Position numbers and translations under genes: made by a program
The notes under the pieces: generated by a model
What the model saw: only the letters and a program-made list of their open reading frames with translations
What the model was told of the DNA's origin: nothing
The model's database searches: none
Part shown: one piece after another, positions 19,813 to 42,113 of the stretch
Position numbering within the stretch: the stretch's first letter is position 1
Layout of the letters: each line of letters starts with the position of its first letter
From: an uncultured Candidatus Peribacteria bacterium
Lineage (GTDB): Bacteria > Patescibacteriota > Gracilibacteria > UBA1369
Direction of reading: 5' to 3'
NCBI GenBank assembly: GCA_964571725.1
Contig: CAZNDB010000003.1
Span: 127,797-191,796 of the forward strand
Length of the DNA stretch: 64,000 bases

Positions 19813-20379
19813 ATGTCCAAGTCTTCGAAAATTGCTTTAATCAGGGAAATTTTAGACAGTGCTGAGGCCTCGCTGCGCTCGGCCAAACAAATGCTGGCTG
19901 AAATGGCCGGGGAATCAGGTCAGAATCAGCTTGCCAAAATGGCCGAGAAAGTCGGCAGCCACAAACAGGTTGGCGAACAGCATATTATCGAGGGATCGTT
20001 TGACGGTCAAAATATGATCGGACCCGATGCCCGCGTTTATTCCGTTCCGGCCAATTATGCCTCCAAATCCAAGCTGGTCCCCGGAGACGTTTTAAAACTG
20101 ACTATTACCGAGGACGGAACCTTTCTGTACAAACAGATCGGCCCTATCGAAAGAAAAAAGCTGGTTGGAACGCTTACCTATGATGATGGCGTTTACCGCG
20201 TCATTGCCGGAGGGAAGTCCTACAAAGTATTGCTGGCTTCCGTAACCTATTTCAAAGCAGAGATCGGCGACCGGATCACTATAGTGGTTCCGGAAAGCAG
20301 CGACAGCGACTGGGCTGCTATTGAGAACGTTCTCCCCCGCTTCGAGGAAGGCATCAGTCCTGACGATTTCAAAATTTAA
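19813..20379 (+). CDS. hypothetical protein (188 aa), first gene of the pilT operon
   Basis: ORF with an N-terminal helix and a C-terminal half that looks beta-rich. No motif recognised. 42 nt upstream of pilT. Confidence 0.55.
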   Translation: MSKSSKIALIREILDSAEASLRSAKQMLAEMAGESGQNQLAKMAEKVGSHKQVGEQHIIEGSFDGQNMIGPDARVYSVPANYASKSKLVPGDVLKLTITEDGTFLYKQIGPIERKKLVGTLTYDDGVYRVIAGGKSYKVLLASVTYFKAEIGDRITIVVPESSDSDWAAIENVLPRFEEGISPDDFKI

Positions 20380-20421
20380 AAAATCCCCCGCCGGAAAACC
20401 GGCCAAAATAAAAATAAAATT

Positions 20422-21480
20422 ATGGCTCAATTAGACAAAATCTTCAAAACCGCTGTTCAGTACAAAGCTTCCGATGTCTATATCACCACAGGTACCAAGC
20501 CCATTCTGCGCATCAACGGTAATCTGATCTCCATCGAAGAACATCCGGTGCTGTCCAAAAAAATGGCTGAGGACTACCTTTCCGAAATTCTAAGCGACAA
20601 ACAAAAGGAAGAATTTTCCCGCACTCTCGATCTCGACTTCTCTCTGGAAGTACCCGGAGTTTCACGCTTCAGAGTAAATATGTTCGTCCAAAGAAAGGGA
20701 ATCGGAGCCTGTTTCCGCGTCATTCCGGAAAACGTCCACACCCTGGAAGAATTGGGACTCCCGGATAAATTAAAGGAAATTGCCGTCACCGACCTGGGTC
20801 TGGTCATCGTAACCGGTGCCACCGGTTCAGGTAAATCCACCACCCTGGCCGCCATGTTAAATGAGGTCAACTCCAAAGACGCGCGCCATATCATCACCAT
20901 TGAAGACCCCATTGAATACGTCCATGAAAACGTTAAATCCGTCATCGATCAACGTGAAGTCGGCACCCACACCCTGAGCTTTCAGAAAGCCCTGCGTTCC
21001 GCCCTGCGTGAAGATCCGGATGTAATTCTGGTTGGTGAAATGCGTGATCTGGAAACCATTGCACTGGCTCTTACCGCCGCTGAAACCGGTCACTTGGTGT
21101 TCGCCACTCTGCATACCAACGGAGCCGCCGCTTCCATCGACCGTATCATCGACGCCTTCCCGACCAATCAGCAAAATCAGATCAGAATGCAGCTGGCCGG
21201 TTCCCTGAAAGCCGTAGTCTGGCAGACACTGCTCAAAACCAAAGACGGCAACGGCCGCGTGGCCGGTCTGGAAATCATGATCAACAACAATGCCGTAGCC
21301 AACATGATCCGTAAAAACAAGACCCATCAGCTGAACTCCGCCATCGAAACCGGTTTCAAAGAAGGTATGCAAACCATGAAGAAGTCCATTACCGAGTTAT
21401 TGGAAGCCGGAATTATCAGCGAAGAAGTCGCCCTGGAAAATATTCCCGAAGACATTATCGATAACAATGCCAACGCTTAA
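20422..21480 (+). CDS. pilT: type IV pilus retraction ATPase PilT
   Basis: 352 aa. Walker A GATGSGKSTT, IITIEDPIEY (Asp box), ILVGEMRD (Walker B), GHLVFATLHT (His box), and AVANMIRKNKTHQL in the position of the PilT AIRNLIRE motif. Confidence 0.92.
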   Translation: MAQLDKIFKTAVQYKASDVYITTGTKPILRINGNLISIEEHPVLSKKMAEDYLSEILSDKQKEEFSRTLDLDFSLEVPGVSRFRVNMFVQRKGIGACFRVIPENVHTLEELGLPDKLKEIAVTDLGLVIVTGATGSGKSTTLAAMLNEVNSKDARHIITIEDPIEYVHENVKSVIDQREVGTHTLSFQKALRSALREDPDVILVGEMRDLETIALALTAAETGHLVFATLHTNGAAASIDRIIDAFPTNQQNQIRMQLAGSLKAVVWQTLLKTKDGNGRVAGLEIMINNNAVANMIRKNKTHQLNSAIETGFKEGMQTMKKSITELLEAGIISEEVALENIPEDIIDNNANA

Positions 21481-21937
21481 CATCACAAAATCCGCCGCTC
21501 TGATTTTGAAAACCCTGCTGGTCGGACTGTTGTTGTCGTTGAATATTGGACAAACCGCCTGGGCGCAGCTGGACCGAAGTCAATATAGCCAGATGAATGT
21601 CGGCCAGGTACTTTCCCTCAAAGAAAACACCGAGGGACAAACCGGGGCTGGCGTTACGCAAGGCAGCCAGGATCAGAGTTATCTGAAAAGCAGCAACCCC
21701 ACCGCCTCTTTCATCCTGCAGGCCATTAACATGGTCGCCCTGATGTCAGCCTCTTTAAGCTTTCTGGCCATAGTCGTCGCCGGTTTTATGATGATGACCT
21801 CTACTGGCAACGAAACACAAAGAAACCGGGGCATCGAAATATTAACAAAGGCCATAGTCGGGCTGGTAATTACTTTGAGCGCCTATTTCATCGTAGCTTT
21901 CGTCCAGAATTTACTTTTTGAAACCGCCGGAAAATAA
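21467..21937 (+). CDS. TrbC/VirB2-like pilin family protein, paralog 1 (putative)
   Basis: 156 aa. Signal peptide (…TAWA|Q), variable ectodomain, then a TM-loop-TM hairpin LSFLAIVVAGFMMMTSTGNETQRNRGIEILTKAIVGLVITLSAYFIV. The start overlaps the pilT stop by 14 nt. Confidence 0.65.
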   Translation: MPTLNITKSAALILKTLLVGLLLSLNIGQTAWAQLDRSQYSQMNVGQVLSLKENTEGQTGAGVTQGSQDQSYLKSSNPTASFILQAINMVALMSASLSFLAIVVAGFMMMTSTGNETQRNRGIEILTKAIVGLVITLSAYFIVAFVQNLLFETAGK

Positions 21938-22618
21938 ATGAAAAAATTTGTCACAAAAATCTTGTTACTCACTCTTGCCAGTATCATTACGATTTCAATC
22001 TCGCAAGTTTCATTTGCCTTAACGCAATTTCAGGTCTGCACTTTTGTAAACAACCAAAACAAATCCGTTGACGAAAAAGTACCGGTAGACGATAGAGAAT
22101 TTTCAGACAAAATGGTTGTGATTACCGAAGAAAGACTGGGTGCCCCCGACAACAAAAACACCTTCAACTGCTACCGGAAAATTGAATGTACCATTAAACC
22201 TTCAGACCCCGCTAAAGCAGGCGAGAATCTGATCCGCAAATGCTCTACAACCTTCACAACTTCTTCCCCTTCCGGATGTTCAAACAGCAAAGAAATTGCT
22301 GAAGTATTGGCAAAAACACCGGCCGAAAACGACACCTACACCATCTGCGAACCCATTATGGTCTATGTCTCCGGAGCCGGCACGGAATTACTGTACTACT
22401 ACATGGGACAAATCTATAAGTACATAGCCACACTGGGCGGCCTGATTGCCGTACTTGCTCTGATCATCGCGGGAATCATGCGTTCAACCGCCGGCGACAA
22501 CACCACCCAGATCACCGAAGCCAACAAAATCATTACCAAATCCATAACCGGACTGGTGGTGCTGTTCTTATCGGCCATCATTCTTTACACCATCAATCCG
22601 AACTTCTTTGTAATTTAG
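21938..22618 (+). CDS. TrbC/VirB2-like pilin family protein, paralog 2 (Cys-rich ectodomain)
   Basis: 226 aa. Signal peptide (…VSFA|L), ectodomain of about 120 aa with 6 Cys, and hairpin LIAVLALIIAGIMRSTAGDNTTQITEANKIITKSITGLVVLFLSAII. Starts at the base after the paralog 1 stop. Confidence 0.6.
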   Translation: MKKFVTKILLLTLASIITISISQVSFALTQFQVCTFVNNQNKSVDEKVPVDDREFSDKMVVITEERLGAPDNKNTFNCYRKIECTIKPSDPAKAGENLIRKCSTTFTTSSPSGCSNSKEIAEVLAKTPAENDTYTICEPIMVYVSGAGTELLYYYMGQIYKYIATLGGLIAVLALIIAGIMRSTAGDNTTQITEANKIITKSITGLVVLFLSAIILYTINPNFFVI

Positions 22619-22621
22619 CCA

Positions 22622-23044
22622 ATGAAAAAACTTGCCCCGAAAATCAGCTGTAAATATGCCAGACTGTTCCTGCTCGGACTATATCTGCTGATTTCTTTTG
22701 CCAGTGTCTCGCTGGCCCAGGGCACCATCACCCAACCGCCCATTATCCCGAGCGGTGGTACCAGCACCGAAAAACTTTATATACCTCACAACACCTCCCA
22801 GGAATCCAACAAAACCTATATGGAACAACGGCTTCTGCCGGGCATAGCCAGTTCAATTATCGGTATTACTGGAGCCCTGGCCCTGCTATTCACTATTATC
22901 AGCGGCATACAGCTTTTAACCGCTTACGGCAACACCGACGCCGCGGGAAAGGCCCAGAAAACGCTGACCTGGTCGCTGATCGGTTTATTGGTCGCTGGCC
23001 TTTCCTATGCCATCGTCAGAATTATTGCCTCAATAACGGTATAA
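22622..23044 (+). CDS. TrbC/VirB2-like pilin family protein, paralog 3
   Basis: 140 aa. Signal peptide (…VSLA|Q). Hairpin ALALLFTIISGIQLLTAYGNTDAAGKAQKTLTWSLIGLLVAGLSYAIV. Confidence 0.65.
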   Translation: MKKLAPKISCKYARLFLLGLYLLISFASVSLAQGTITQPPIIPSGGTSTEKLYIPHNTSQESNKTYMEQRLLPGIASSIIGITGALALLFTIISGIQLLTAYGNTDAAGKAQKTLTWSLIGLLVAGLSYAIVRIIASITV

Positions 23045-23045
23045 A

Positions 23046-23636
23046 ATGATTGGAACAAAAATCACAATCAGAAAAATCCTGGCTACCATTGCGCTTTTAT
23101 GGTTGATTGTTCCTGCTGTTTGTCTGGCTGATCCCACGGATCCGGCCGTCCCCGCCGGTTCAAGCGGAACAACGGGCAGCCAGGCCCCCGCCTCCCAGGA
23201 CGCCGGCGTATCCGCAGACGAATTGTTTCAACGCTTCACCTACACTACCGAAACAACCGGCACCAAACTGGACGCGGTCAACAATCTGCCTCAAAAAGAC
23301 TGGAAAGCTTCACTGACAAGCATAATCAAAATTCTGCTCAATATCAGCGGCGCACTGACACTGCTCTCCTTTACGGTGGGCGGAGTAATGATGATCGTTT
23401 CACAGGGCAACGGAGATCTGCTGGAGAAAGGAAAACGCATCACCTATTATTCAGTGGCTGGACTGGTTATCATTGCCGTATCCTATGCCGTGGTAATCGG
23501 CGTATCCGAACTGCAGATTTTCACGCCGGGAGCAGGAGGAGGAGGGCAACAGAGCGGTAGTTCAGCGCCGGCGGCGCCAGCGGCACCGGCTAACGGAGGT
23601 GGCACCGTACCAAGTCAGGCACCCTCCAAATTATAA
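23046..23636 (+). CDS. TrbC/VirB2-like pilin family protein, paralog 4 (with G/S/A/P tail ending VPSQAPSKL)
   Basis: 196 aa. Signal peptide (…VCLA|D). Hairpin ALTLLSFTVGGVMMIVSQGNGDLLEKGKRITYYSVAGLVIIAVSYAVV, then a low-complexity tail. Confidence 0.65.
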   Translation: MIGTKITIRKILATIALLWLIVPAVCLADPTDPAVPAGSSGTTGSQAPASQDAGVSADELFQRFTYTTETTGTKLDAVNNLPQKDWKASLTSIIKILLNISGALTLLSFTVGGVMMIVSQGNGDLLEKGKRITYYSVAGLVIIAVSYAVVIGVSELQIFTPGAGGGGQQSGSSAPAAPAAPANGGGTVPSQAPSKL

Positions 23637-23642
23637 ACAAAA

Positions 23643-24167
23643 ATGACTAAAAAAATCCCAAAATTAATCCTGGCAATATTGGCCCTCACTATCTGGACAG
23701 CCGGACTTGGCACCGCTATGGCCATACCTTTAGACAATCAGGATCTGATGACCCGGGTTGTTCTTGATCCCAATCTAAAACCGGATAATTCACCGGGAGT
23801 AATTATCGGAACGGAAACTCTCGCCAAATCAGGCGCGGAGGCGGCCTTTGGAAATTATGTATTACAAATTATCGCCGGTGGACTGATCACAGTTGCTGCC
23901 CCGGTTGCCATAATCATTATTGCAATTTCCGGTTTGATAGCAGTTGTTTCACATGGTGAACAGGCACTCATCGATAAAGCCAAGAAAACTTTAACCTGGG
24001 CCATCATAGGACTGATAGTAATTATATTTTCCTGGGTCATCGTGAAAGCTGTAATAAGTGTAGTGATCAGTGCCAACAGTAATCCGACCACCCAAACCGG
24101 TACACCTCCGTCAACTCAGGGAGCGGGTACTGGAAACGTGCCAAGTCAGGCCCCCTCTAATTTATAA
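23643..24167 (+). CDS. TrbC/VirB2-like pilin family protein, paralog 5 (tail ending VPSQAPSNL)
   Basis: 174 aa. Signal peptide (…TAMA|I). Hairpin VAIIIIAISGLIAVVSHGEQALIDKAKKTLTWAIIGLIVIIFSWVIV, then a T/P/G/S tail. Its stop overlaps the convergent metG stop region by 11 nt. Confidence 0.65.
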   Translation: MTKKIPKLILAILALTIWTAGLGTAMAIPLDNQDLMTRVVLDPNLKPDNSPGVIIGTETLAKSGAEAAFGNYVLQIIAGGLITVAAPVAIIIIAISGLIAVVSHGEQALIDKAKKTLTWAIIGLIVIIFSWVIVKAVISVVISANSNPTTQTGTPPSTQGAGTGNVPSQAPSNL

Positions 24168-25694: not shown

Positions 25695-25714
25695 GGGGTA
25701 AAAATCTTTACCCC
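25695..25714 (-). terminator. stem-loop after the 1372-aa gene (GGGGTAAA-4 nt-TTTACCCC), weak T tract
   Basis: Perfect 8-bp stem and 4-nt loop, 40 nt past the stop of the giant gene and only about 17 nt upstream of the metG ATG. It could be a terminator, an attenuator or part of the metG leader. Confidence 0.4.
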
Positions 25715-25753: not shown

Positions 25754-28700
25754 CTATTTGGCAGGAGCGGTTTGAGAACTGGCAGAGGACACTGTATCCT
25801 TTGGTTGATCGGTTCCATACAGTACTTTCTGATTGTTATAAAAATACCGCATTTGGTCCTGCGTGACAGATCCTTGCTTCAAGGCAGCAATGAAACTTTC
25901 TACAGTCATCCCTTGAGGCGGTACCAAAATATTTTTTATTTCTGGAAATTTATTGATCGTATCAGCAATTGTCCTCTGACCTGCTGAACCAACATTATAA
26001 TTGGATTCTACAATCAAGACACCAATTTTTCTGCCAGCTTCTCTGGCGGCATCAGTTCCTTCCCGTTCTCTGGTCATTACCGGCACAGCTTCCGGAACAT
26101 TGCCTATTGTGGCCGGAGCTTTAGGCGCCTGGGCTGGGGGAACCTGTGCTGGAGCCGCTTGGGGTTTTACCGAAACACCAGCCAGATAACCGGGCTCGTT
26201 ATTAACGGCCATATTGATCAGGGTTGAAACGGCATTTTTTTCAGCGTTCATGGCCATATGTCTGTTTCCCCCCTCCACAAAATTGTTCCAACCCGGTGCG
26301 ACAGATATTTCCATCCCCTGTGATGTTTTATAAAAATTCAGGGTCAGGGGTTTTTCGTTACCAGGCATTCCAGCCCGGACATTGAAACTGACTGAGTTTT
26401 CCGATACCGAGGAATTTCCTTCAATTCTTGACAAGAATAATTTACTCGTATCAAAATTTTCAGTTTGATTAATCTTGTTTAACGCAGCTAAAGGCAACTC
26501 TTTCCAGTTTGGAGAGTTGGCAAATTCTTTAAAAGTTGGATAAGGTTTTGTCTTTGCCTCCTGATATTCCTTTTGGGCTGCTGCTTGAGTCTCCTGATCC
26601 TTTTTATAACGGGGATATTCTTTCTTATTTTTCTTATTTTTCTCATTTTCCTGATATTCCTTATAAAAGGTCTTGGGGTATTTGATGACTTTAATTAAAG
26701 CCTCCTGAAAACGACGGTCATAGGTCTGCAAAGGCTCCGTGCTTTTCATCGCGCCAAGTTTAGTCTGAACCGCTTTCAAAGCTTCCTCCATTCCGGCGGC
26801 ATAAGCCTTTTGGGCTTCGACAAAATCTCCATAACCCATTGTATTCCAACCCGCTTCCGTCTGATCTGCGTTCAACAGAACTCCAACAAAAGCCCGCGTA
26901 CTGGGCAGATTTTTTAAGATATTCTTACCGTCCTTCTCCATTGGTAACTTTTCGTTATCATTGACCACGCTATCAAAGTTTTTTCTGAACGGAGTCCCGG
27001 CAATAATTTTCCTGACCCGTGATTGGTACGAAGAACTCTCGGTATTTTCCCCGTCTTTGGGTTTCAATTCCGCAATGGGAAGTTTTGAGATCAACTCCCA
27101 CATCTGCTTAATATAATATAACACTTTTACTTTTTCACCAGTCCCTGCCGGAGTACTATCCCCCACTTCTTTGGCCAGTAAATATTTTCTTACCCTTTCA
27201 TAATTTTCCAGTTTTGGAACGCCCTTTAAAACATTATCAACAGCTGCAATTTTTATTTTGTTGTCATTGGGCACTTCTGTCGGTTCCTTGTCATCATGCA
27301 AAACATTAATCTTCGGTTTCGGTTCCTCCGGAGGTTTCGGCTGTTCCTTACCAGGTTCCACAGTAGCCGGTTGTTCTTTTGGGGGTTCCAATCCCTGCGG
27401 TTTGACTATGAAATAGCCCTCATTTCTGGCCCGGCGAAACTCCTGTAAATTCGGTTCCGTCGGTGTACCCAAATTAAACATTCTGGCGGACATTCCATCG
27501 ATCGAAAGATAAGCAAGTCCATCCGGCGACATCGAAGTTATGCGTACATTATCAGGCCTTTCAAACGTACCGCCGAATGTGGCGGAATGCTTGGCGTTAA
27601 AATTATCCAGCATTTTACCAAGTCCTTGTTCAGATACCTTCTCTCCCCCCTTGGTAGTCATCTGTTCCTTCTGTACAGCCAGCAAGCTTAAAGCCTTATT
27701 AACTGCCATTCCTGGTTCTCCGTGAAAAGTCCCCAATTGTTGCCCGAGGGGAATCAGATTAAACTTAAAATCTCCATTACCGTTATGAATTATTTGCAGG
27801 CTCTGAGGCGGATCAAGTTTCTGCATCCAGTCAATCACCAGGATATGCCCCTTGTCTCCGGATTCCTGTACTTTACCGTTTGCGGCTTCCATATTGCGCA
27901 TAGATCTGATATTCAATACCTCTCCGGCATTCAGACTTCGCGCCATTGATTGAATCAATTTCAATCCTTTTTCTGGCCCCTTTTCAGTTCCCATTTCTTC
28001 AAAAAACCTTCTTTCCATTTCCGCCTGCTCATCGCGGGGATCTCTGTCATCCGGATGTTCCGCCCTATCCTGTAATTGTTTTAGAGTTCTCATCATATCC
28101 GAAAAACCACCTGCCCTAAAACGGTATTCACCTTGGCGATTAACACTGCTATGTACAACCCTGACATCTAGTTCGCCATGCAGCAATGACTTAATATTAA
28201 CGCGCGGATCTTTGGACAGCCCCACAGCCCAGTCAAATTCATATTGTACTCCTCCGTCTTTATCTTCGGGACCATTATCAACAGTCAATCCCCAGGCCTC
28301 AAAATTCGACTTATCTCTGACGGTCTTACTTTGAGCTTCCTGTAAGATAGACCCGTCATTTAATCTGGCCGCATAATACTTTTGCGCTTCCTGTAATCCG
28401 GCTTTTCCTTCAGCTTTAGGGTTATAGTCCGACAGAATTTTCCCGGAATCCATCCGCAAATAATAATCACCACTCTTACCTTTATAGAAATCACAGGCGA
28501 TTGCTCCATCACCAAGGGGAACATTTACCTTCACCGGAGGCCCGTCATTATATTGCAATATTTGCTGCAAAGCTGGCAAATACCGTTTATCCACCTCCGC
28601 AACATCTTTTTTATTTAATAATTTTGCCACCTCCTGTTCAGTCCCGTCTAGGGCCGTTGATTTGGGTTCTTTATCGGCCTTTTCCTGTGCAGCCTTGGCA

Positions 28701-29872
28701 ACCGCTTCCTTCCCTTTCTCCTGAGCCCGGACCGAAAGATTATCATGGGCATAGGCCAAATGTTGCCCGCCATTGGCTTCCGGACCGTATAACACTTTCA
28801 ATGGATTACTGCTTGGCGCTTTCCCGCCTTCTTTCAAAAACACAAACACACCGTTTTCTATTCTCACATTGGTGTAGCCTTGTCCGGTTAGTTTGTTGAT
28901 AAAATTAGTGTATTTTTCTGCCGGTGATTTATTGGACGGATCATCGGCATTTATATAACTTTGCAAAGCCGTTTCCATTTCAGCCGCAGTAATTGGTTTG
29001 CCCTTATCCCTGGTTATTGAAGCTTCTAGAGATTTAACCAAGTCCGACAGACTCACGCTGGGATCAAGTTTTGGCGCATTATTCCCGCTCACCTTCTCCA
29101 GATTCTCCGGTTTGGTGCGCTCCCGGTTGGCAGCCTCCTGTTTGGCCTTGGCTTCACTGTCTTTTTTCTCGGCCTGACGGCGATTCATATAATTCTTGGA
29201 TTCCTCACTGGTGGCTGTCATTTGTATCGGAGAAGATATCAGTTTTTTTTCTTTATCAAAAAACCGCCATTTCCCGTTTTCAATCGCGAATGAAGCAATT
29301 TTGTTGTCCTTCAGCCACCGGTTTATCTCAGTATTCCGTGCCGCCTGTTTTTCTCCTGCAGTCTTTTTCCCATTATCTATTGCACCAATTTTATCCGCGC
29401 TACTAGCCCTTTCCAGAATTCCTGTCATCATATCATCCACCATCCTTTCAATCGTAAACTTATTATCGGTTTTTTGAATTTCCTGCACGGCATTTTTAAT
29501 ATCGGCATTGCCCTTCAGAGTATTTCTCAAACTGACCGCATCGGGCCGGGGCTTCATATCAATATGTTTGTCCGTACCGGTCTTCAGCTGATCATATTGT
29601 TTTTCAATATTGTTCAATCTCTCTCCTGCCTGTTTGTCCCGCTCGGCTTTTTCCTGGGCATCTTTGGCCTCCTTGGCCTTTTTGGCCGCGTCGTCAGAAT
29701 CCGCAGCAGTATCTGGCTTGTTCACATCAAAAACCATTCTCTTCTGCAGAAAAATCCATTTTTCCGGATTCTGTTTAGGAATAAATGTTGTCATTGTCTT
29801 GAATATTATTATTTTCTTTGTTTTTGTTGGACATCTGATCGATGATTCTCTGCCTGGCCAACTTGGCGTCAT
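25754..29872 (-). CDS. giant orphan protein (1372 aa as drawn), last gene of the pilin operon
   Basis: Uninterrupted 4.1-kb ORF with no signal peptide, TM helix or enzyme motif. It has K/E-rich and P/A/Q-rich linkers and an internal repeat (FAIENGKWRFFDKEKKLISSP versus VRIENGVFVFLKEGGKAPSSNP). The start is uncertain: ATGs at 29872, 29794 (MTTFIPK) and 29737 (MVFDV). Confidence 0.8.
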   Translation of the reverse strand: MTPSWPGRESSIRCPTKTKKIIIFKTMTTFIPKQNPEKWIFLQKRMVFDVNKPDTAADSDDAAKKAKEAKDAQEKAERDKQAGERLNNIEKQYDQLKTGTDKHIDMKPRPDAVSLRNTLKGNADIKNAVQEIQKTDNKFTIERMVDDMMTGILERASSADKIGAIDNGKKTAGEKQAARNTEINRWLKDNKIASFAIENGKWRFFDKEKKLISSPIQMTATSEESKNYMNRRQAEKKDSEAKAKQEAANRERTKPENLEKVSGNNAPKLDPSVSLSDLVKSLEASITRDKGKPITAAEMETALQSYINADDPSNKSPAEKYTNFINKLTGQGYTNVRIENGVFVFLKEGGKAPSSNPLKVLYGPEANGGQHLAYAHDNLSVRAQEKGKEAVAKAAQEKADKEPKSTALDGTEQEVAKLLNKKDVAEVDKRYLPALQQILQYNDGPPVKVNVPLGDGAIACDFYKGKSGDYYLRMDSGKILSDYNPKAEGKAGLQEAQKYYAARLNDGSILQEAQSKTVRDKSNFEAWGLTVDNGPEDKDGGVQYEFDWAVGLSKDPRVNIKSLLHGELDVRVVHSSVNRQGEYRFRAGGFSDMMRTLKQLQDRAEHPDDRDPRDEQAEMERRFFEEMGTEKGPEKGLKLIQSMARSLNAGEVLNIRSMRNMEAANGKVQESGDKGHILVIDWMQKLDPPQSLQIIHNGNGDFKFNLIPLGQQLGTFHGEPGMAVNKALSLLAVQKEQMTTKGGEKVSEQGLGKMLDNFNAKHSATFGGTFERPDNVRITSMSPDGLAYLSIDGMSARMFNLGTPTEPNLQEFRRARNEGYFIVKPQGLEPPKEQPATVEPGKEQPKPPEEPKPKINVLHDDKEPTEVPNDNKIKIAAVDNVLKGVPKLENYERVRKYLLAKEVGDSTPAGTGEKVKVLYYIKQMWELISKLPIAELKPKDGENTESSSYQSRVRKIIAGTPFRKNFDSVVNDNEKLPMEKDGKNILKNLPSTRAFVGVLLNADQTEAGWNTMGYGDFVEAQKAYAAGMEEALKAVQTKLGAMKSTEPLQTYDRRFQEALIKVIKYPKTFYKEYQENEKNKKNKKEYPRYKKDQETQAAAQKEYQEAKTKPYPTFKEFANSPNWKELPLAALNKINQTENFDTSKLFLSRIEGNSSVSENSVSFNVRAGMPGNEKPLTLNFYKTSQGMEISVAPGWNNFVEGGNRHMAMNAEKNAVSTLINMAVNNEPGYLAGVSVKPQAAPAQVPPAQAPKAPATIGNVPEAVPVMTREREGTDAAREAGRKIGVLIVESNYNVGSAGQRTIADTINKFPEIKNILVPPQGMTVESFIAALKQGSVTQDQMRYFYNNQKVLYGTDQPKDTVSSASSQTAPAK

Positions 29873-30314
29873 ACTTGACCCGCCCTCTTTCCACCTCCCG
29901 AAACCTCATCACCCGCGGGGCTATCGGGAATTCCAGCGGAACGGTTTTCAGGGCTAATTTTTCCTCGCCCCGGTAAAAATCAACCTCACCGCCCACGATC
30001 CCAATATAATTGGCTCCCTCGGCAATTTTCTGCATCCAGACATCCTCAATCTTCTGTCCGGCCTGCAAATATTTCTCCAGAGAAGCCATCGCTTTTCCCG
30101 GCAAATCGGGATCATAAGGTTTCACGTTGTCTCGAAGCAGTTCCAAAGTTTTATCAATATCAGCGGAAATCGGACAGCCACCGTTAAATTTTTTCCCCGC
30201 ATCTTCCTGCTCCGCAAACTTTTGCAGGCGCAGGTCCAGCGGAGGTCTGCCGGTATTCGCACCGTCATCCCTGACCGGTTCCGCATCCAAATTGTGGGTC
30301 ATATCATTTACCAT
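29775..30314 (-). CDS. hypothetical protein (179 aa, no signal peptide)
   Basis: ORF whose ATG overlaps the stop of the PilX-like gene by 4 nt and whose stop overlaps the giant ORF. No recognisable motif. Confidence 0.6.
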   Translation of the reverse strand: MVNDMTHNLDAEPVRDDGANTGRPPLDLRLQKFAEQEDAGKKFNGGCPISADIDKTLELLRDNVKPYDPDLPGKAMASLEKYLQAGQKIEDVWMQKIAEGANYIGIVGGEVDFYRGEEKLALKTVPLEFPIAPRVMRFREVERGRVKYDAKLARQRIIDQMSNKNKENNNIQDNDNIYS

Positions 30315-30316
30315 GA

Positions 30317-31660
30317 CTACTGATTATTTGTGTTTACTGTTTCCGCTTCATTGCGGGTCCTATATAAAGAAAAATTGAACACCGGTAAAAATCCCGGAGC
30401 TTTGTATCTGACATCCAGGCTCTTGGTCACAGTACCGGCGGCTGAAAATCCCCGGCTGCTGATCTCGGCAAAATCTTTGACCAGTTTGGGAGCCTCCTGA
30501 CCCGCAGACCCGGCCTCAGCTTGCGTATCACGCCTGGCCAGTACGCGGTAATAGATATCAGCCCGGGCCAGCTGGCTGGGATCCTTCAGATTGGCAATTC
30601 CGGCCACGTTGGGATTAACCATGTTGGTCAGAATCAGATAATTCTCTTTGTGATTATCAATAAAGTCGCGCATCTGACAGCCGGTCGCATCGCCTATGGT
30701 GGTTCCCTTGATCAAAGCCCCGCCGGTTACGGCCACTCCGGCATCGGTCTGATAACACTCACGGGCAGCGGACCAGAGAGTCACATCACTCAAATCGGTA
30801 TTTTCACCAAGCTTGGGAGGTTTCGGACTTAAACTGGGAAACACGCAGGTTTCAGCCTTTGCCCCGCTTACCGCCCGTATATTGGCATCAGTACCGATAC
30901 AAACAGGACGGTCTGGACTGTTGTTGGTAACCCCGGGATAAAAATCGGCAATAGATTCCGTTCTCTGTACCCCGCTGTCAACCAGGGGCTTACCGTAAAT
31001 TTTCCAGCGCAACACATCAAACTCTTCCAGTTTCATTCCCTGCAAGGGACCGTATAAATCACTGCCGTCCCTCAAATTCAAATAATATTCAATCAAAAAA
31101 TCATTTACCGAAACAGTCGAATCGCCATCATCCTCCGCGCTGTACAACGGAATGATATGGGTCTCGTTCAATCCCAGTTTTCTGTAGGTGGCTTTGGGAC
31201 AATCTTCGTATACCTGCTGTCTGGAATAGGCTATCGCCATCGGATTGCGGGCGTTACTGATCTGACAATCCGCGTTTATCTGCCCGCCGTCCACTCCGGC
31301 CACCCTGTCCACAAAAATCGGCTGACCCTGGGGAAATCCGGGAATGGAGTCAGTGCGGTTACTGGTGGAATAACCGTAGGAAAAAGACGGATCAATCTCA
31401 TCATTCGGGTCCGCCGCCAATTCGCCCCGCGGTTCTTTACCCGGTAAACTGTCGGAAAGCGCCAGCAAAGCATCCTCTACTCCGGCTTCCGCGGCATAAT
31501 AGGCCTTATTGGCATCCACAATCGACTGGGTAACCCGAATTTCTTTGAGCACCAACGTGCTTATACCCAAAGTCATGGTCATTAAAACACCTAACATCAA
31601 TAAAGTGATCAGCAGAGCCGAGCCTTTTTTCAACACCGGATTTTGATGCGGTTTAATCAT
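30317..31660 (-). CDS. PilX-like type IV minor pilin / pilus assembly protein
   Basis: 447 aa. The N-terminus KKGSALLITLLMLGVLMTMTLGISTLVL is the PilX-N type hydrophobic segment and lacks Glu5. Large variable globular domain. Confidence 0.65.
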   Translation of the reverse strand: MIKPHQNPVLKKGSALLITLLMLGVLMTMTLGISTLVLKEIRVTQSIVDANKAYYAAEAGVEDALLALSDSLPGKEPRGELAADPNDEIDPSFSYGYSTSNRTDSIPGFPQGQPIFVDRVAGVDGGQINADCQISNARNPMAIAYSRQQVYEDCPKATYRKLGLNETHIIPLYSAEDDGDSTVSVNDFLIEYYLNLRDGSDLYGPLQGMKLEEFDVLRWKIYGKPLVDSGVQRTESIADFYPGVTNNSPDRPVCIGTDANIRAVSGAKAETCVFPSLSPKPPKLGENTDLSDVTLWSAARECYQTDAGVAVTGGALIKGTTIGDATGCQMRDFIDNHKENYLILTNMVNPNVAGIANLKDPSQLARADIYYRVLARRDTQAEAGSAGQEAPKLVKDFAEISSRGFSAAGTVTKSLDVRYKAPGFLPVFNFSLYRTRNEAETVNTNNQ

Positions 31661-32346
31661 TAATTTCTGGCGGTGATTAAGGTCTGATATTTCAAATCAA
31701 ATTTAACCGTGTCCAATTTCGATCCCACGTCCAGATACATTCTCACCATCGGTTGCAGCTGGGTGGCCAGATCTTTTGCCGAACCGGCACCCTGGGGATC
31801 TTTCTGGGGCAATATTTCAAAACGCACGTCGTTCACTTTCAGATTGGAGAAAGCAAATTCTTTGTAATCTCCGCAACCGTTTCCTTCACCCTCCGTTGCA
31901 GCATTCTCATAACCGCTTTCCAGCTGCCACGAACCGTTCAGACTCCTGTATCTCTTCAGACAGACTTTCTGCGTCACCGGATCAAATTTAATAATGCTGC
32001 TGGTTAAACCGTCCCGGGAAATGGTGCGAAGATTATCACCGGAACTAACCGTCAGAAGAGCGGAATCGTAACATCTCACCAGTGACATCTGATTGAAAAC
32101 GATGTTTTCCCCGAAATCCTGGTTATAACAAAAATAATCCACGGTTCCTTCGCGCATTTCATTGTTCACGTAATCCACAAAATTGCGCAGTTCGGAATAA
32201 ATCTGTCTGGTTTCATTGGCCGACTTCTGAGCCCGTATCACCTGCAGATAAGCGTCAACGGCAACCACCATAAACCCCATGAAGATAGCAATTGCAATCA
32301 GCAATTCGATCAGGGTGAAACCTTTTTGTCTTTTGGGGTTTTTCAT
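31660..32346 (-). CDS. prepilin-type N-terminal cleavage/methylation domain protein (minor pilin)
   Basis: 228 aa. MKNPKRQKG|FTLIELLIAIAIF is a canonical class III signal. Confidence 0.85.
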   Translation of the reverse strand: MKNPKRQKGFTLIELLIAIAIFMGFMVVAVDAYLQVIRAQKSANETRQIYSELRNFVDYVNNEMREGTVDYFCYNQDFGENIVFNQMSLVRCYDSALLTVSSGDNLRTISRDGLTSSIIKFDPVTQKVCLKRYRSLNGSWQLESGYENAATEGEGNGCGDYKEFAFSNLKVNDVRFEILPQKDPQGAGSAKDLATQLQPMVRMYLDVGSKLDTVKFDLKYQTLITARN

Positions 32347-33077
32347 TATCTCCAGTCAGTTAAATTGGTGGTCAGAACAACTTTTCTGGGTATTCCGTTT
32401 ATCCCCTCCCAGGTAACAATCGAATTTATCCGGAGAGAATTAATCTCTCCCTTATCGGATAGAACAGGTTGAATGCGAATCATTCTGTGAAAGGCAGTGG
32501 CCTGAGCGGAAGAAGGAATCTCCGTATAATTATCGGTTTGAAAATATCTAAACCTGCTTTGAATCTGAGCATCGGCGCCGGCTTCGCCCTGATCAAGATA
32601 AACCAAGGTGGAATCGGATTTTGACAGATCCTGCCAGGTGGCCTGTTCCAGTTTGACCAGACTGACCGGCAGACAAAGCTTCAGATTTAATTTATCGCAG
32701 CTCAAAGACGGATTCTCAAAAGTAACCAGTTTGAAAAAAGACTCTCCGTTCAAAACGTTGTCTTCATAAAGTTTTTCGCCCCAGAAAGAGAACTGGTCAA
32801 CGGAATTTTTTTTGGCACCGTCAAAACCAAGTCCCAGATAGACGTTGGAATCGCGTATAAACCTGACTGCTTCCAACCCTTCCTGGGCCAGGCCGTTGGC
32901 AATCAGACTGCTGACATTATCCGAATTGGTTCTCATCACCACGCTGAGAATGCTGACCGCGCTGGTAATCACCATGGCCAAAACGCTAAAAGAGATTATT
33001 ACCTCCGGCAACGTAAAAGCCATCTGGCGGAGAGAGTTTTTTACAATTTCTGATTGTCGTTTTTCTGCAGTCATCAA
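32346..33077 (-). CDS. minor pilin-like protein with non-canonical class III signal
   Basis: 243 aa. ...LRQMA|FTLPEVIISFSVLAMV has Ala rather than Gly at position -1, with Glu5 retained (PilV/GspI-like). Confidence 0.65.
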   Translation of the reverse strand: MMTAEKRQSEIVKNSLRQMAFTLPEVIISFSVLAMVITSAVSILSVVMRTNSDNVSSLIANGLAQEGLEAVRFIRDSNVYLGLGFDGAKKNSVDQFSFWGEKLYEDNVLNGESFFKLVTFENPSLSCDKLNLKLCLPVSLVKLEQATWQDLSKSDSTLVYLDQGEAGADAQIQSRFRYFQTDNYTEIPSSAQATAFHRMIRIQPVLSDKGEINSLRINSIVTWEGINGIPRKVVLTTNLTDWR

Positions 33078-33097: not shown

Positions 33098-33106
33098 ATT
33101 ATACCA
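33098..33106 (-). promoter_or_regulatory. extended -10 element TGGTATAAT (minus strand) upstream of the minor-pilin genes
   Basis: The reverse complement of 33098-33106 reads TGGTATAAT, located just after the major-pilin terminator. Confidence 0.4.
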
Positions 33107-33131
33107 AAAAAACAGCTTTTTTAAAAGCCGT
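33105..33131 (-). terminator. rho-independent terminator after the major pilin gene
   Basis: Minus strand ACGGCTTTT-AA-AAAAGCTGT (one mismatch) followed by TTTTTTT. Confidence 0.5.
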
Positions 33132-33158: not shown

Positions 33159-33776
33159 TTAGATTCTTCTGACCGCTCCCGTAGACAAATCAAATTCCAC
33201 TTGTCTGTCCAGATCCGGCGAATCCACGTCACCCACTTTGAAAGTCACAATTTGGCTTACCGGTCTGACCAAACTATCCTGCTGCAGCTCCAGAATTTGT
33301 CCAAAAGGAGGTTTAAAATAATAGGTATTTTCCGTTCCCTCACCAATTAAAATCACTTTTCCGGTAAAAACTTCGGATTTTCTCCAGTTTTCTGCGCCGG
33401 GAACCCTTTGACAACTGTCCACAACGCCGTTTTCGCCCTCCGCGACGTAATTGGTCTGGGCAGTAAATAATCCGGCTTTGGTTTCGTCCGTACCGGTAAC
33501 AATTTTAACCGCGTAACACTGCAAAACCGATTTATCGGGTTCCGTACTGGTACTTTCCTGCCGCACTACATTGCCGCTTCTGGCCAACACCTGCACTTCC
33601 CGCAAAGTGGAGACCAGCGTATCGGTGGCAAATTCCACCCGGGCCTGTCTTTCCACGGCGGCATAATTGGCAACGGCGATCACCGTCATCAGGGCAATGA
33701 TACAAATAACAATCAGCAGTTCTATTAAAGTAAACCCTTTCTTCTGACCGGATATTTGTTCGGACCTCTGTTTCAT
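33159..33776 (-). CDS. type IV pilin (probable major pilin)
   Basis: 205 aa. MKQRSEQISGQKKG|FTLIELLIVICIIALMTVIAVANY is a canonical type IVa signal. Two Cys in the globular domain. A terminator follows the gene. Confidence 0.85.
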   Translation of the reverse strand: MKQRSEQISGQKKGFTLIELLIVICIIALMTVIAVANYAAVERQARVEFATDTLVSTLREVQVLARSGNVVRQESTSTEPDKSVLQCYAVKIVTGTDETKAGLFTAQTNYVAEGENGVVDSCQRVPGAENWRKSEVFTGKVILIGEGTENTYYFKPPFGQILELQQDSLVRPVSQIVTFKVGDVDSPDLDRQVEFDLSTGAVRRI

Positions 33777-33780
33777 GAAA

Positions 33781-34971
33781 TTAAACTAAAGAGGACAATT
33801 TGAAGACCGGTGACAGAATCGCCAGGGCCAGCAGAGCCACCGTTACGCCCACCAGCACGATCATAATCGGCTCAAACAAGCTGGTCAGACGTTTCAGACT
33901 ATTATCAATTTCCTGATCATAATGTTCGGCAATTTTTTCTGAAATACGACCGATGGCAGCCGTCTGTTCACCTACCGACAGCATCTGGGTGACCGTTTCG
34001 GGAAAAAGAAAAGGAGAATCCATCAGAGCGGCGGAGATTTTTTCCCCGTCCCGCACCTTGGCAATCACCTCCCAGGTTTTCAGGGAATACATTTGGGAAG
34101 ACATACTTTGGGCAATAATTTCCAGGGATTTAATCACCGGCAACCCGGACTCGATCAATATTCCCAGATTGGATATAAAGCGCAGTACATAGACCTTTCT
34201 GAGCAGCACTCCGACTACCGGAAATTTCAATTTCATGATGTCCCAGCGATAACGACCTCCCTCCGATTCAGTCCAGATTTTGAAAAGAAAATAAATAACC
34301 AGCGCTCCGATTATAATGGCCCACCAATAAGATGTCAGAAAGGCCGAAATTGCAATCAGCAGCTTGGTCATTACGGGCATGTCGGACTCTTTCATACCAC
34401 CTTCCATCAAAAGTCCCACCAGCGAGGGGATAACAAAAGTCATCATGCCGGCGGCTGCGATAATCAAAACGCCCAACACGGCCAAAGGATAGATGGAAGC
34501 CGTAATCAGCTTCACCTGTAAAGTATTGGACTTATCCAGCTGAGCGGACAGCTTGAAAAGCATTTTATCCAGATTACCGGCGGCTTCGCCGGAACGAACA
34601 ATGCCAATCTCCATTTCCCCGAAAACATCGGCAAAACGGGAAAGGGCAGTGGAAAAAAGACTTCCCTGTTTCAGATTATAGGCGACGGTATTTAAAATTC
34701 TGGCAAAACGCACGCTTTCCGCCCGGGTAGCCAGGATATTCATGGCTGTAATCAGGGGAATGCCGGCATCAATCATCACTGCCAGCAGGTGAAAAAAATA
34801 AACTTTTTCCTGCAGGGAAATCCGGCCATGATCAATCAGAAAATCCTCCATACGGGTCAAAAGTCCGGCCCCGGAATTATCGTAAGTGCCATAAATTACT
34901 GATCTGCGCGGATCCTCTTTTACGGACTGCCTCAGTAACTTATCGATTTTTTTCTGATTGTTGTCTTCCAT
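33781..34971 (-). CDS. pilC: type IV pilus platform protein PilC (GspF family)
   Basis: 396 aa. Two T2SSF repeats (GEMEIGIVRSGEAAGNLDKML and QMLSVGEQTAAIGRISEKIAEHY) and three TM segments. Confidence 0.9.
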   Translation of the reverse strand: MEDNNQKKIDKLLRQSVKEDPRRSVIYGTYDNSGAGLLTRMEDFLIDHGRISLQEKVYFFHLLAVMIDAGIPLITAMNILATRAESVRFARILNTVAYNLKQGSLFSTALSRFADVFGEMEIGIVRSGEAAGNLDKMLFKLSAQLDKSNTLQVKLITASIYPLAVLGVLIIAAAGMMTFVIPSLVGLLMEGGMKESDMPVMTKLLIAISAFLTSYWWAIIIGALVIYFLFKIWTESEGGRYRWDIMKLKFPVVGVLLRKVYVLRFISNLGILIESGLPVIKSLEIIAQSMSSQMYSLKTWEVIAKVRDGEKISAALMDSPFLFPETVTQMLSVGEQTAAIGRISEKIAEHYDQEIDNSLKRLTSLFEPIMIVLVGVTVALLALAILSPVFKLSSLV

Positions 34972-34989: not shown

Positions 34990-35532
34990 TTAAAGACCGG
35001 CCTGGAAATAAGTTTCCAGACTGATACTGAAATTGACCCTGGCCATCCCTTCGGTCGTACCAAATTGAACGGTAATGTTCTTAACCACCATCTTGCGGGG
35101 GCTGTTTTCCAGTCCCTTCAAAAGTCTGATCAGATCGGATTCATTGCCGGTCATGCTGATGCTGACAGTTGCTTTCTTTAATTGTTCCTTAGACCCCAGT
35201 GGAATTGAAAAACTGATACTGCCAATGTTGACATCGTTTTTGCTGGCAATGTCAGTAATCAGGGTAATTAATTTATCCTGCTCAAATCTTTCCGGAACAG
35301 CCGTTAAAACTGTTTGTTGCTCAATCTCACCGGCACCCTGTAAATTGGCCTGAGCTGCCTGTAACGTTGCCAGCTGGTCTTCCGCGGTCTTTTTATCGGC
35401 TTCACGCGCCCGCTCGGTAACCCTGAGCGCGGATGTTTCATCCAGATTGGGTTTAAACCAGAATATTCCGACCGCCACCAGCGCCACCAGCAGGATCAGA
35501 CTGACTATTGAGGATGTATTATTACTTTTCAT
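34990..35532 (-). CDS. PilO-like pilus assembly protein
   Basis: 180 aa. Bitopic protein with an N-terminal TM, a coiled coil, and a ferredoxin-like C-terminal domain pattern. Position is downstream of the PilN-like gene. Confidence 0.6.
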   Translation of the reverse strand: MKSNNTSSIVSLILLVALVAVGIFWFKPNLDETSALRVTERAREADKKTAEDQLATLQAAQANLQGAGEIEQQTVLTAVPERFEQDKLITLITDIASKNDVNIGSISFSIPLGSKEQLKKATVSISMTGNESDLIRLLKGLENSPRKMVVKNITVQFGTTEGMARVNFSISLETYFQAGL

Positions 35533-35538
35533 ATTTAA

Positions 35539-36210
35539 CTAATTATTTCTTGGTATTTTTGGGGTGTTGTTTTCCGTATTTGACGTGCTCGCGGTGCCGT
35601 CATTGGAAAGTTGCAGGGAATCGGAACCGGTTTCCGCTTTTTTATAGTCGGTATTCAGCATGAAACTCAGTGAAACGGAGCCGGTCTCATCTGTGCCTTT
35701 GGCAATGGATGGGACATAAGCATCTTTGAAAAAGACACTGTTGTTAAACGTGGCAATAATCCCGGCAACGGCATCATAAGGAGGTAAAGCGGCCGGTTGG
35801 GTAACCATGCTCAAAACAATTTTTCCCTGACCGGTACCGGAATAAGACAAAATTTCCACTTTTCGTTTGCCGAAAGAATCCTGGGGTAAAAGTTTTTCCA
35901 CTTCTGAGATGACCTCTGACCAGCGGATTTCGTCGGACTCGATTTTGGCCAGGGCTTCGGAAGCATTCTGGCTCACTTCCACCTTGTTACTCTTGATAGT
36001 ATCAATCTGCGCTTGAATATCACGGGTCTGCTTTTCCAGATCGGTGGTATTACTGAGAATCCTGCCCTTGTCAAAACTTAGAAAGACTCCATACAGTACC
36101 AGTCCGATTACCAGAAAAAACAGGACATAATTCAGCATTCCACCTTTACCCGTCTTCTGGTTGACCTGACTGTCTGTTTCCGGAGCCTTATTATTGGATA
36201 TAATTGCCAT
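35539..36210 (-). CDS. PilN-like pilus assembly protein
   Basis: 223 aa. Short cytoplasmic N-terminus, a TM (NYVLFFLVIGLVLYGVFLSF), a coiled coil and an alpha/beta domain. First gene of the minus-strand pilus operon. Confidence 0.55.
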   Translation of the reverse strand: MAIISNNKAPETDSQVNQKTGKGGMLNYVLFFLVIGLVLYGVFLSFDKGRILSNTTDLEKQTRDIQAQIDTIKSNKVEVSQNASEALAKIESDEIRWSEVISEVEKLLPQDSFGKRKVEILSYSGTGQGKIVLSMVTQPAALPPYDAVAGIIATFNNSVFFKDAYVPSIAKGTDETGSVSLSFMLNTDYKKAETGSDSLQLSNDGTASTSNTENNTPKIPRNN

Positions 36211-41635: not shown

Positions 41636-42113
41636 GATCCTATCAATGAGTAATCGCTGGTTTTGAGACTCTCCCGGTTTCGGCCGGAAGTGATCCTTAA
41701 AAACGAGAGGAAAGTCCGAGCGCCCGTTAAGCATAATGGCTTCTAACGGAAGCAGCCGTCCGCCCTAAACGGCCGGTATGGAAAGTGCCACAGAGACTAT
41801 ACTAGTTTTGTCCGTCCGCTTCAGTCGCAAGATTGATCCGGAAACAACAAAACCAAAGGTGAAAAGCCTTGCCGTCCGGCCTGGACTTCGGTTCCGGCCA
41901 GGCGAGGTGCCTCCGTGTGAACGGAGTGTTATGGCAAACCCCATTTGGCGCAAGGTGGGATGGGAGATTTCGGGATTACCTGGCTTAACAGGTCCGGAAC
42001 TCCCCACCGCTTGAGCTCCACCGCAAGGTGGCGCCTAGATAGATGATTACTGGACGGGAGGCCCCACAAGGGCTTGCCGTTATACAGAACTCGGCTTATG
42101 ATTTGATAGGATC
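41636..42113 (+). ncRNA. rnpB: RNase P RNA, bacterial type A
   Basis: P1 pairing GATCCTATCAA (5') with TTGATAGGATC (3'). Universally conserved GAGGAAAGTCCG, GTGCCACAGAGA, CTTGAGC...CCTAGATAGATGA and ACAGAACTCGGCTTAT (P4) blocks are in the correct order. A T7 run follows. Confidence 0.93.

Follow-up and report, generated by a model that had tools for sequence, protein, structure and literature searches.

Which product of a type IV pilus (T4P) operon takes the position after the minor pilins that the tip adhesin PilY1 holds in proteobacteria, and what might it do there? This question is raised by a 64,000-nucleotide (nt) stretch of DNA from an uncultured Candidatus Peribacteria bacterium (assembly GCA_964571725.1, contig CAZNDB010000003.1, positions 127,797 to 191,796 of the forward strand), which we analysed in full and refer to as the window. 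In it, the gene of a PilX-like minor pilin is followed by two genes encoding proteins without any recognizable export signal, here called the small protein and the giant protein. Both open reading frames (ORFs; 179 amino acids (aa) and about 1350 aa) were found where the initial annotation, made from the sequence alone, had placed them. We conclude that the pair is a conserved, rapidly evolving accessory module of a T4P operon in a candidate phyla radiation (CPR) bacterium, composed of previously undescribed domains. The two genes are:

29775..30314, minus strand: small protein gene (179 aa, 20.3 kDa, pI 5.2; no signal or transmembrane (TM) segment)
25754..29794, minus strand: giant protein gene (1346 aa, 149.6 kDa, pI 8.8; no signal or TM segment)

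Neither protein contains a signal peptide, a class III leader (G before F/M-x-x-x-E, with a hydrophobic helix) or a TM segment. Over 19 residues, the Kyte-Doolittle mean peaked at 0.76 in the giant and at 0.71 in the small protein, the N-terminal 60 residues of the giant scored -0.09, and N_methyl matched neither protein. The initial annotation had stated this lack of signals, and the hydropathy scan and the N_methyl search agree with it. It had also seen no PilY1 or enzymatic signature, and our Pfam, NCBIfam and Foldseek searches likewise returned none. No family was found for either protein in Pfam, NCBIfam, PHROGs or PADLOC (in Pfam and PADLOC, none at E <= 0.1), the PADLOC result including families of anti-phage defence, and a Pfam search of 30 giant-family members yielded no known family. 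PDB sequence profiles gave no match to the whole giant, its core, the small protein or the private C-terminal extension described below. In a Foldseek comparison of the AlphaFold2 (AF2) models of both proteins with the PDB, the best E value was 0.11. Foldseek matches to CagA, RnlA, PUR-repeat and BamB proteins were not used (probability <= 0.15); those to BamB/WD40 structures had E values of 0.18-2 and probabilities < 0.1. A BFVD match (E 8.8e-6) to Kuja_0190, an 831-aa hypothetical protein of Vibrio phage Kuja (MN718199 19877-22372) in phrog_3867 (function unknown), was rejected after hhalign gave a probability of 0.2% to the family, and probably reflects a likeness of repetitive secondary structure. 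By tblastn, the giant core had no match in 50,697 phage records. The tapirin model NF051896 hit neither the small nor the giant protein; its match to the PilX-like pilin (E 0.0097) was confined to the N-terminal helix.

The family is small. A word-indexed search of 5.8 billion clusters retrieved 6 clusters for the giant and 8 for the small protein, each including the window's own, with small-protein homologues at 40-68% identity. Against 1.84 billion representatives, a HMMER profile of giant residues 105-1190 matched no more than 27 proteins at E <= 0.001, with 16 scoring below 1e-30. Among 185,579 GTDB species representatives the giant occurred in one, a 1.34-Mb chromosome of a metagenome-assembled genome named 'Candidatus Gracilibacteria bacterium', and a metagenome scan added one further locus. 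The word 'orphan' in the initial annotation was therefore too strong: with 27 representative clusters for the giant, and 8 clusters plus syntenic copies for the small protein, the pair is a rare, lineage-restricted family.

Linkage to minor pilin genes, which the initial annotation had proposed to check across related genomes, is kept. The order minor pilin, PilX-like pilin, small protein, giant and methionyl-tRNA synthetase (MetRS) is present in 11 loci of one Gracilibacteria/Peregrinibacteria-like lineage, down to ~25% identity (syntenic loci: the window, L001, L002, L003/4, L005, L006, L007/8, L012, L013 and L014). The PilX-like and small genes lie 2 nt apart in five loci, the window among them, and 5 and 18 nt apart in two others. 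Spacing between the small and giant genes in six compared loci is -20, -20, -8, +3, +17 and +21 nt. These tight junctions are a better argument for a functional link than synteny is.

The pair is also the fastest-evolving part of its neighbourhood, changing faster than the pilins. Between the window and L006, the giant is 35% and the small protein 29% identical, compared with 60-69% for the pilins, 77% for the PilX-like pilin, 76% for MetRS, 82% for PilC and 91% for PilT. The variation is unevenly spread. In the closest relative, P0002, whose PilC is 93% identical, giant residues 24-195 are 42-48% identical (48% in module R1, defined below, which is thus hypervariable between close relatives), the small protein 68% and the units of the giant's core 63-89%. 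A variable N-terminus joined to a conserved core is a pattern typical of host- or surface-interaction proteins. The most variable pieces are the small protein and the giant's N-terminal region, as expected of parts that touch one another or an external partner that itself varies.

Alignments and AF2 models divide the giant into the following parts:

29729..29758, minus strand: conserved N-terminal motif W13-F22 (WIFLQKRMVF), from an alignment of 21 N-termini
29210..29482, minus strand: module R1, residues 105-195, three helices and the hairpin FAIENGKWRFF (AF2 secondary structure)
28760..29089, minus strand: module R2, residues 236-345, three helices and the hairpin VRIENGVFVF (hhalign and AF2)
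27395..28657, minus strand: conserved core, residues 380-800, units of beta-sheet and helix, the most conserved part of the family
27290..27394, minus strand: Pro/Lys/Glu-rich linker PPKEQPATVEPGKEQPKPPEEPKPK, residues 801-835 (AF2 predicted local distance difference test score (pLDDT) 26-35)
26207..27289, minus strand: C-terminal helical region (836-1104) and C-terminal beta domain (1105-1196), from alignment and AF2
25757..26206, minus strand: P/A/Q-rich tail (1197-1249) and 97-aa extension (1250-1346), from alignment and composition

The N-terminal motif has the family consensus hydrophobic-L-x-K-R-L-V-W, often followed by G-P-E-G-P, within a charged region that cannot be aligned. All 21 representatives have its Arg, and the L, V and W are nearly invariant; we refer to the motif as the R-L-V-W peptide. 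We saw it on no other ORF of the window or the related loci.

Comparison of profiles shows the small protein to be a separate copy of a module of three helices and a hairpin that is repeated twice in the giant. By hhalign it is homologous to giant residues ~248-330 (probability 91%, E 1e-6, against a sub-alignment of R2; 68.6%, E 4.6e-5, against the full giant alignment). In separate AF2 runs, the small protein, R1 and R2 were predicted with matching order: three helices, a beta-hairpin and a long charged helix. The internal repeat of the initial annotation was recovered at F169-P189 and V310-P331 of the giant. It is the hairpin of the shared module, and the small protein carries a third copy (IGIVGGEVDFYRGE). 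An hhalign comparison of R1 with R2 gave a weak match confined to the hairpin (E 0.004, 24 columns), but the key residues of the repeat are invariant in the family. In the core, unit U2 (493-590, EFDW...HG) aligned with unit U3 (615-722, DWMQKL) at an hhalign probability of 76% and E 2.3e-5, and the two are a tandem duplication. The core is the region common to the giant, to P0026 and to P0033, P0035 and P0036, relatives to which we return below. Model confidence is uneven. The giant (residues 105-1190) has a mean pLDDT of 65.5, with 514 residues at >= 70, values of 70-89 over 385-574 and of 73-90 in R2; the small protein has a mean of 64 and reaches 70-84 over residues 45-125. The small-protein alignment contains the invariant motifs NGGC.IS and W..K..EG.N. 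The conserved Cys of the former was considered as a catalytic residue or lipobox and dismissed, there being no hydrophobic stretch before it and the Cys being replaced in L007.

Both linkers of the initial annotation were confirmed, the proline-rich linker at residues 804-828 and the P/A/Q stretch at ~1205-1235. At the site of the proline linker, P0004 and P0005 have an insertion of ~220 aa. The C-terminal tails of the giant family are variable, K/P/A-rich and mostly basic. The last 97 aa of the giant (25757-26047, minus strand) are private to this genome, being absent even from the 72%-identical P0002, and had no Pfam or PDB match. We judged it unlikely that this extension is a polymorphic toxin, since MetRS follows and no immunity-like gene is present. 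The pair defines a new domain family, comprising the three-helix-hairpin module, the duplicated EFDW/DWMQ core and the R-L-V-W peptide.

The reading frames were checked in detail. The stop codon of the PilX-like gene (TAG, 30319-30317) is followed by a 2-nt spacer, tc, and the ATG of the small ORF at 30314 (TAG-tc-ATG), a gap where the initial annotation had given an overlap of 4 nt. An in-frame TAA at 30326-30324 precedes the small ORF and rules out a longer N-terminus. The giant frame is open from an ATG at 29872 down to the stop at 25754 and offers three candidate starts. Those at 29872 and 29794 overlap the small ORF, whose stop lies at 29777-29775, by 98 and 20 nt, and the one at 29737 lies downstream of that stop. 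Alignment of homologue N-termini (equivalents of MTTFIPKQ...) and the family motif at residues 13-22 fix the predicted start at ATG 29794, giving 1346 aa, a length identical to the NCBI call (P0001). The overlap of the giant ORF with the stop of the small ORF that had been proposed earlier is 20 nt from this start. Homologue N-termini disagree with the other two candidates. Starting at 29737 would cut the N-terminal motif, and the 26 residues added by 29872 are not hydrophobic. An SD-like GGAGG ahead of 29872 was discounted because the operon genes use no Shine-Dalgarno (SD) site: none has one, and all leaders are A/T-rich, like that ahead of 29794. We also considered recoding of UGA as Gly, as in BD1-5/Absconditabacteria, which could conceal a longer giant N-terminus. 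TGA closes many ORFs in the window and serves as a stop (code 11), so that no hidden upstream extension is possible. The earlier reservation that an upstream signal sequence might have been missed is removed by the in-frame stops and this code.

Since intact syntenic homologues exist down to ~25% identity, sequence comparison shows that both ORFs are real genes and not chance frames. An annotation artefact, in which A-rich long ORFs are never expressed as protein or represent a frameshifted fusion, could draw on the strongly A-rich coding strand (plus-strand AT skew ~-0.2) and on the lack of an SD-like site before ATG 29794. However, SD sites are missing from every gene of the operon, and their lack at 29794 therefore means nothing; both ORFs have intact homologues at 25-73% identity with conserved motifs and length; and AF2 predicts confident domains, as given above. 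The conservation pattern effectively refutes this explanation, which we regard as having next to no chance of being right. As a compositional observation, plus-strand AT skew in the window falls to -0.20/-0.23 over the giant gene (26001-30000), reflecting its A-rich (Lys/Glu/Asn) coding strand, and GC content there is 0.44-0.45, not foreign to the window.

The surrounding pilus genes are all on the minus strand:

35539-36210, minus strand: PilN-like protein, assigned by position only
34990-35532, minus strand: PilO (Pfam/NCBIfam)
33781-34971, minus strand: PilC/T2SSF (Pfam/NCBIfam)
33159-33776, minus strand: first pilin, 205 aa, with a GspH-like N-terminus (Pfam/NCBIfam)
33098..33131, minus strand: terminator-like hairpin (33131-33112) and overlapping promoter-like site, from a consensus scan only
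31660..33077, minus strand: two minor pilins of 243 aa and 228 aa (GspJ/ComGF-like), with N_methyl and NCBIfam matches
30317..31660, minus strand: PilX/GspK-like large minor pilin, 447 aa, directly upstream of the small gene
25695..25714, minus strand: terminator-like hairpin GGGGTAAAGATTTTTACCCC with a T-rich tail, between the giant stop and the MetRS start, from a consensus scan only

The operon proposed by the initial annotation was largely reproduced, with PilO, PilC/T2SSF, N_methyl pilins and terminator- and promoter-like sites; PilN could be assigned by position only. In the three upstream pilins, N_methyl matched twice above the Pfam cut-off and once weakly (E 0.022). The PilX-like pilin matched PilX_N at E 0.002, below the Pfam cut-off, and NCBIfam T2SS_GspK at E 2e-5, in its N-terminal region only and far below the curated cut-off; its hydrophobic N-terminal helix reaches a 19-residue Kyte-Doolittle maximum of 2.34. 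No pilM gene was found ahead of the pilN-like gene in any locus examined. The hairpin and promoter-like site divide the first pilin from the minor-pilin unit, and the pair lies downstream of both, with the minor pilins and not with pilNOC. On the best explanation, the pair closes the transcription unit of the minor pilins, at the position of PilY1 in proteobacterial operons, as the initial annotation had held. The first pilin, which had been labelled 'major' (33159-33776, minus strand), best matches GspH-type N-termini. To judge from these matches, it and the next three pilins look like a tip set of the GspH/I/J/K type (FimU-PilVWX type), and the true major pilin may be encoded elsewhere. A terminator after the first pilin would, however, suit a highly expressed gene. 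For the 243-aa pilin, the ORF finder began at a TTG followed directly by ATG (TTGATG; 33072-33077, minus strand), and this ATG is probably the real start.

What, then, might the pair do at this position? We tentatively favour the view, with a probability of roughly 0.38, that the giant is a non-pilin partner of the pilus tip or priming complex, acts outside the cell and occupies the niche of PilY1 by analogy only. The 2-nt gap and 20-nt overlap suggest translational coupling, which would keep the small protein and the giant in proportion with the GspH/I/J/K-like minor pilins. The small protein would bind the hypervariable N-terminal region of the giant, through like-with-like contacts of the shared module or through charged helices, and may serve as a dedicated partner or chaperone. 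The giant might dock by its R-L-V-W peptide and fill the PilY1 niche at the tip or priming complex without homology to PilY1, with its conserved core and variable ends in contact with a host or surface. Action outside the cytoplasm, the most conjectural of these steps, would need a non-Sec export route. In favour of this view are the placement in the minor-pilin unit, the evolutionary rate above that of the pilins, the proline-rich spacers and a lipoprotein-type signal in one relative, P0026. The Pro-rich linker and K/P/A-rich tails of the giant resemble those of TonB and PspA, which are envelope-spanning. P0026 (L015 175-2130; 651 aa) is 34% identical to the giant core over 350 aa (E 6e-41) and has no counterpart of the giant's N- and C-terminal regions; its own C-terminal segment is Cys-rich. 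Its N-terminus is a lipoprotein-like signal (MKRAAYVGLVGNLAVVLAVGC, hydropathy 1.99), the only export signal in the family, which puts the core domain outside the cytoplasm in at least one case.

Several observations weigh against an extracytoplasmic tip partner, and some of them speak for a cytoplasmic accessory of the pilus machine, with the giant as a scaffold, positioning or regulatory protein and neither protein leaving the cell; we consider this nearly as likely. Leaders are missing across the family: more than 20 diverse giant-family members with well-defined starts showed no signal peptide, class III leader or TM segment, and the remote relatives described below are leaderless too. To our knowledge, every non-pilin protein of the pilus tip or secreted by way of the pilus (PilY1, PilC1/2, TcpF, CofJ) uses Sec. 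No alternative export system was seen in the 64-kb window, where the export and pilus genes are Sec (SecA), a genuine FtsK that is not EssC, the T4P genes and a cluster of PilT and PF18895 proteins only. P0026 is thin evidence, a single sequence on a 2.3-kb contig of ~56% GC that offers no gene context. A crude composition classifier of cytoplasmic and extracytoplasmic proteins placed the core (-0.025) and the small protein (-0.016) slightly on the cytoplasmic side; it was trained on known proteins of these loci, assigned 13 of 14 families correctly in leave-one-out trials and left several sequences at or near zero. One syntenic locus, L012 (GCA_964546505.1), lacks the small gene, the giant following directly after the PilX-like gene with a gap of 49 nt (9951-10001). 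The idea that the small protein had been fused into its giant (P0031) proved not to be so. Leaderless products of T4P operons (PilB/T/M/Z, regulators) are cytoplasmic, and PilN docks onto PilM by a short invariant N-terminal peptide, of which the giant has a similarly short and invariant counterpart. As a cytoplasmic accessory, the giant could use its R-L-V-W peptide to dock on PilC, the PilN N-terminus or PilB/PilT, or could replace the function of the missing PilM, the pilN-like gene having no pilM before it in any locus; the small paralogue could be a subunit or assembly factor. The fast-evolving polar hubs FimV, HubP and PopZ, too, have charged helices and Pro-rich linkers. Pfam and hydropathy scans detected none of the traits of FimV/HubP hubs in the pair (LysM, TM segment, TPR/FimV C-terminal motif). 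Against a cytoplasmic role, however, the machine parts that reside there evolve slowest in the locus (PilT 78-98%, PilC 70-93%) and the pair fastest; the pair is grouped with the minor pilins and not with pilNOC; P0026 has its signal ahead of the same core; and Pfam and Foldseek revealed no known cytoplasmic fold, whether actin-like, ATPase, PilZ, TPR or other.

Part of the evidence against a tip partner leads elsewhere, to passenger genes that are co-transcribed with the minor pilins and have another job, for example in nucleic-acid handling or in envelope or division biology, their linkage being the frozen gene order of a small, streamlined genome. The whole ~25-kb neighbourhood (FtsH, TilS, MetRS, the PilT cluster and FtsQ) is syntenic in every locus, and the adjacency is therefore not specific to pilins. 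Because the loci come from a single lineage and even the adjacency to MetRS is kept, synteny alone is weak functional evidence. Three relatives, P0033, P0035 and P0036 (E 2e-7 to 2e-5 over the whole library), have only the core in common with the giant and carry no leader (L009 10001-13006, L010 2023-5160 and L011 289-2238). Each is convergent to FemAB, followed by similar small ORFs, and no pilin genes occur in the examined flanks; in L010, FtsZ is nearby. The vicinity of FemAB is a second conserved context of the core domain, without pilins, and the linkage of homologues to pilin genes that the initial annotation had asked for holds for the syntenic loci and fails for these three remote relatives. 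The basic K/P/A-rich tails, and beta4-alpha units weakly like PUR repeats and RnlA (Foldseek E 0.2-1), could hint at nucleic-acid binding. Yet these Foldseek hints are far below significance, a nucleic-acid or envelope domain was significant in none of 30 members, the junction with the PilX-like gene is tight and conserved, at 2 nt in five loci with the window included, and rapid evolution is unusual for housekeeping genes; we consider passenger genes unlikely. More doubtful still is a pilus machine of this monoderm-like CPR lineage that itself exports the leaderless 150-kDa giant or delivers it to a host, with the R-L-V-W peptide as secretion signal and the small protein as chaperone or adaptor. 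We know of no type IV filament system with one-step secretion or delivery of a cytoplasmic substrate.

The analogy on which a tip partner of the PilY1 kind rests is positional. As with PilY1 and Neisseria PilC1-C2, the large gene comes right after a PilX-type minor pilin, its product has variable and more conserved regions, and co-expression with the priming complex is presumed. In contrast to these proteins, the giant has no Sec signal and a small paralogous partner gene, lacks the PF05567 beta-propeller (no Pfam match at E <= 0.1), and is modelled by AF2 as helix/hairpin modules and beta4-alpha units rather than a seven-bladed propeller. Every testable defining structural feature of PilY1/PilC is thus absent. 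Having no beta-propeller, pilin N-terminus or Sec signal, the pair is neither PilY1 nor pilin. Of the earlier interpretation, membership in the minor-pilin unit, the PilY1 position and the lack of signals survive, and the 4-nt overlap and orphan status do not; among the three roles it had offered, namely pilus cargo, a cytoplasmic scaffold and a non-classically exported adhesin, the evidence makes no choice.

Modular minor pilins are a second point of comparison and, within CPR, a precedent in favour of a tip partner. Adhesin domains are carried by the PilX-type pilins PilX1/PilX2 of Saccharibacteria, from the same kind of operon (PMC11623550), and by PilB/PilC of S. sanguinis (PMC8179133). 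Adhesive modules end the minor-pilin set in such monoderm and CPR operons, and the 447-aa PilX-like pilin is of that type; by analogy it may play the Saccharibacteria-type adhesin part. The pair, in contrast, lacks the pilin N-terminal helix and therefore cannot be incorporated into the filament as modular pilins are. As the PilX-like pilin may fill the adhesin part, the leaderless pair would be something additional.

Pairs of a secreted effector and its chaperone include CagF/CagA, VirE1/VirE2, class I chaperones of type III secretion systems and LXG toxins with their small partners. The window's arrangement is reminiscent of them, with a small acidic gene product (pI 5.2) encoded tightly upstream of a large, basic (pI 8.8), leaderless and fast-evolving protein, and with conserved terminal peptides. 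Unlike in those systems, no cognate secretion machinery was seen in the 64-kb window and there is no homology (CagA: Foldseek E 0.11, probability 0.07). We also know of no chaperone that is a paralogue of part of its large partner. UpsX, from the Ups pilus operon of Sulfolobus, is a sizeable protein without signal or TM segment whose biochemical function is unknown. The giant may be compared with it as a sizeable, leaderless, non-TM product of a type IV pilus operon; UpsX differs in being archaeal and the first gene of its operon, and no sequence relationship is expected.

CPR bacteria (Patescibacteria) live attached to other microbes, and T4P are their best-supported attachment devices (PMC11623550). 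What CPR pili carry or recognize is largely unknown outside Saccharibacteria, and the pair is a candidate component of host specificity or machine control in the Gracilibacteria/Peregrinibacteria branch. Were it to work outside the cell, it would need a new route, tied to a type IV filament machine, by which leaderless proteins are exported. Were it to stay inside, it would represent a novel type of cytoplasmic accessory to T4P that perhaps makes up for the missing pilM next door.

Three further features of the window were recorded. On the plus strand, at 19813-24167, genes for five small membrane proteins come after that of a PilT/PilU-family ATPase (20422-21480; TIGR01420, 469 bits), and four of the five proteins exceed the gathering score of PF18895 (T4SS_pilin, VirB2/TrbC-like). 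The cluster, in which conjugative-pilin-like proteins are paired with a T4P retraction ATPase, is convergent to MetRS and kept in all related loci. At 15292-16878 (plus strand), a 528-aa ORF had no Pfam match at E <= 1e-4, with weak DUF4885 and HBL matches only. At 41643-42110 (plus strand), the window encodes a bacterial class A RNase P RNA of 468 nt, compared with 367 positions in the Rfam model, implying sizeable insertions.

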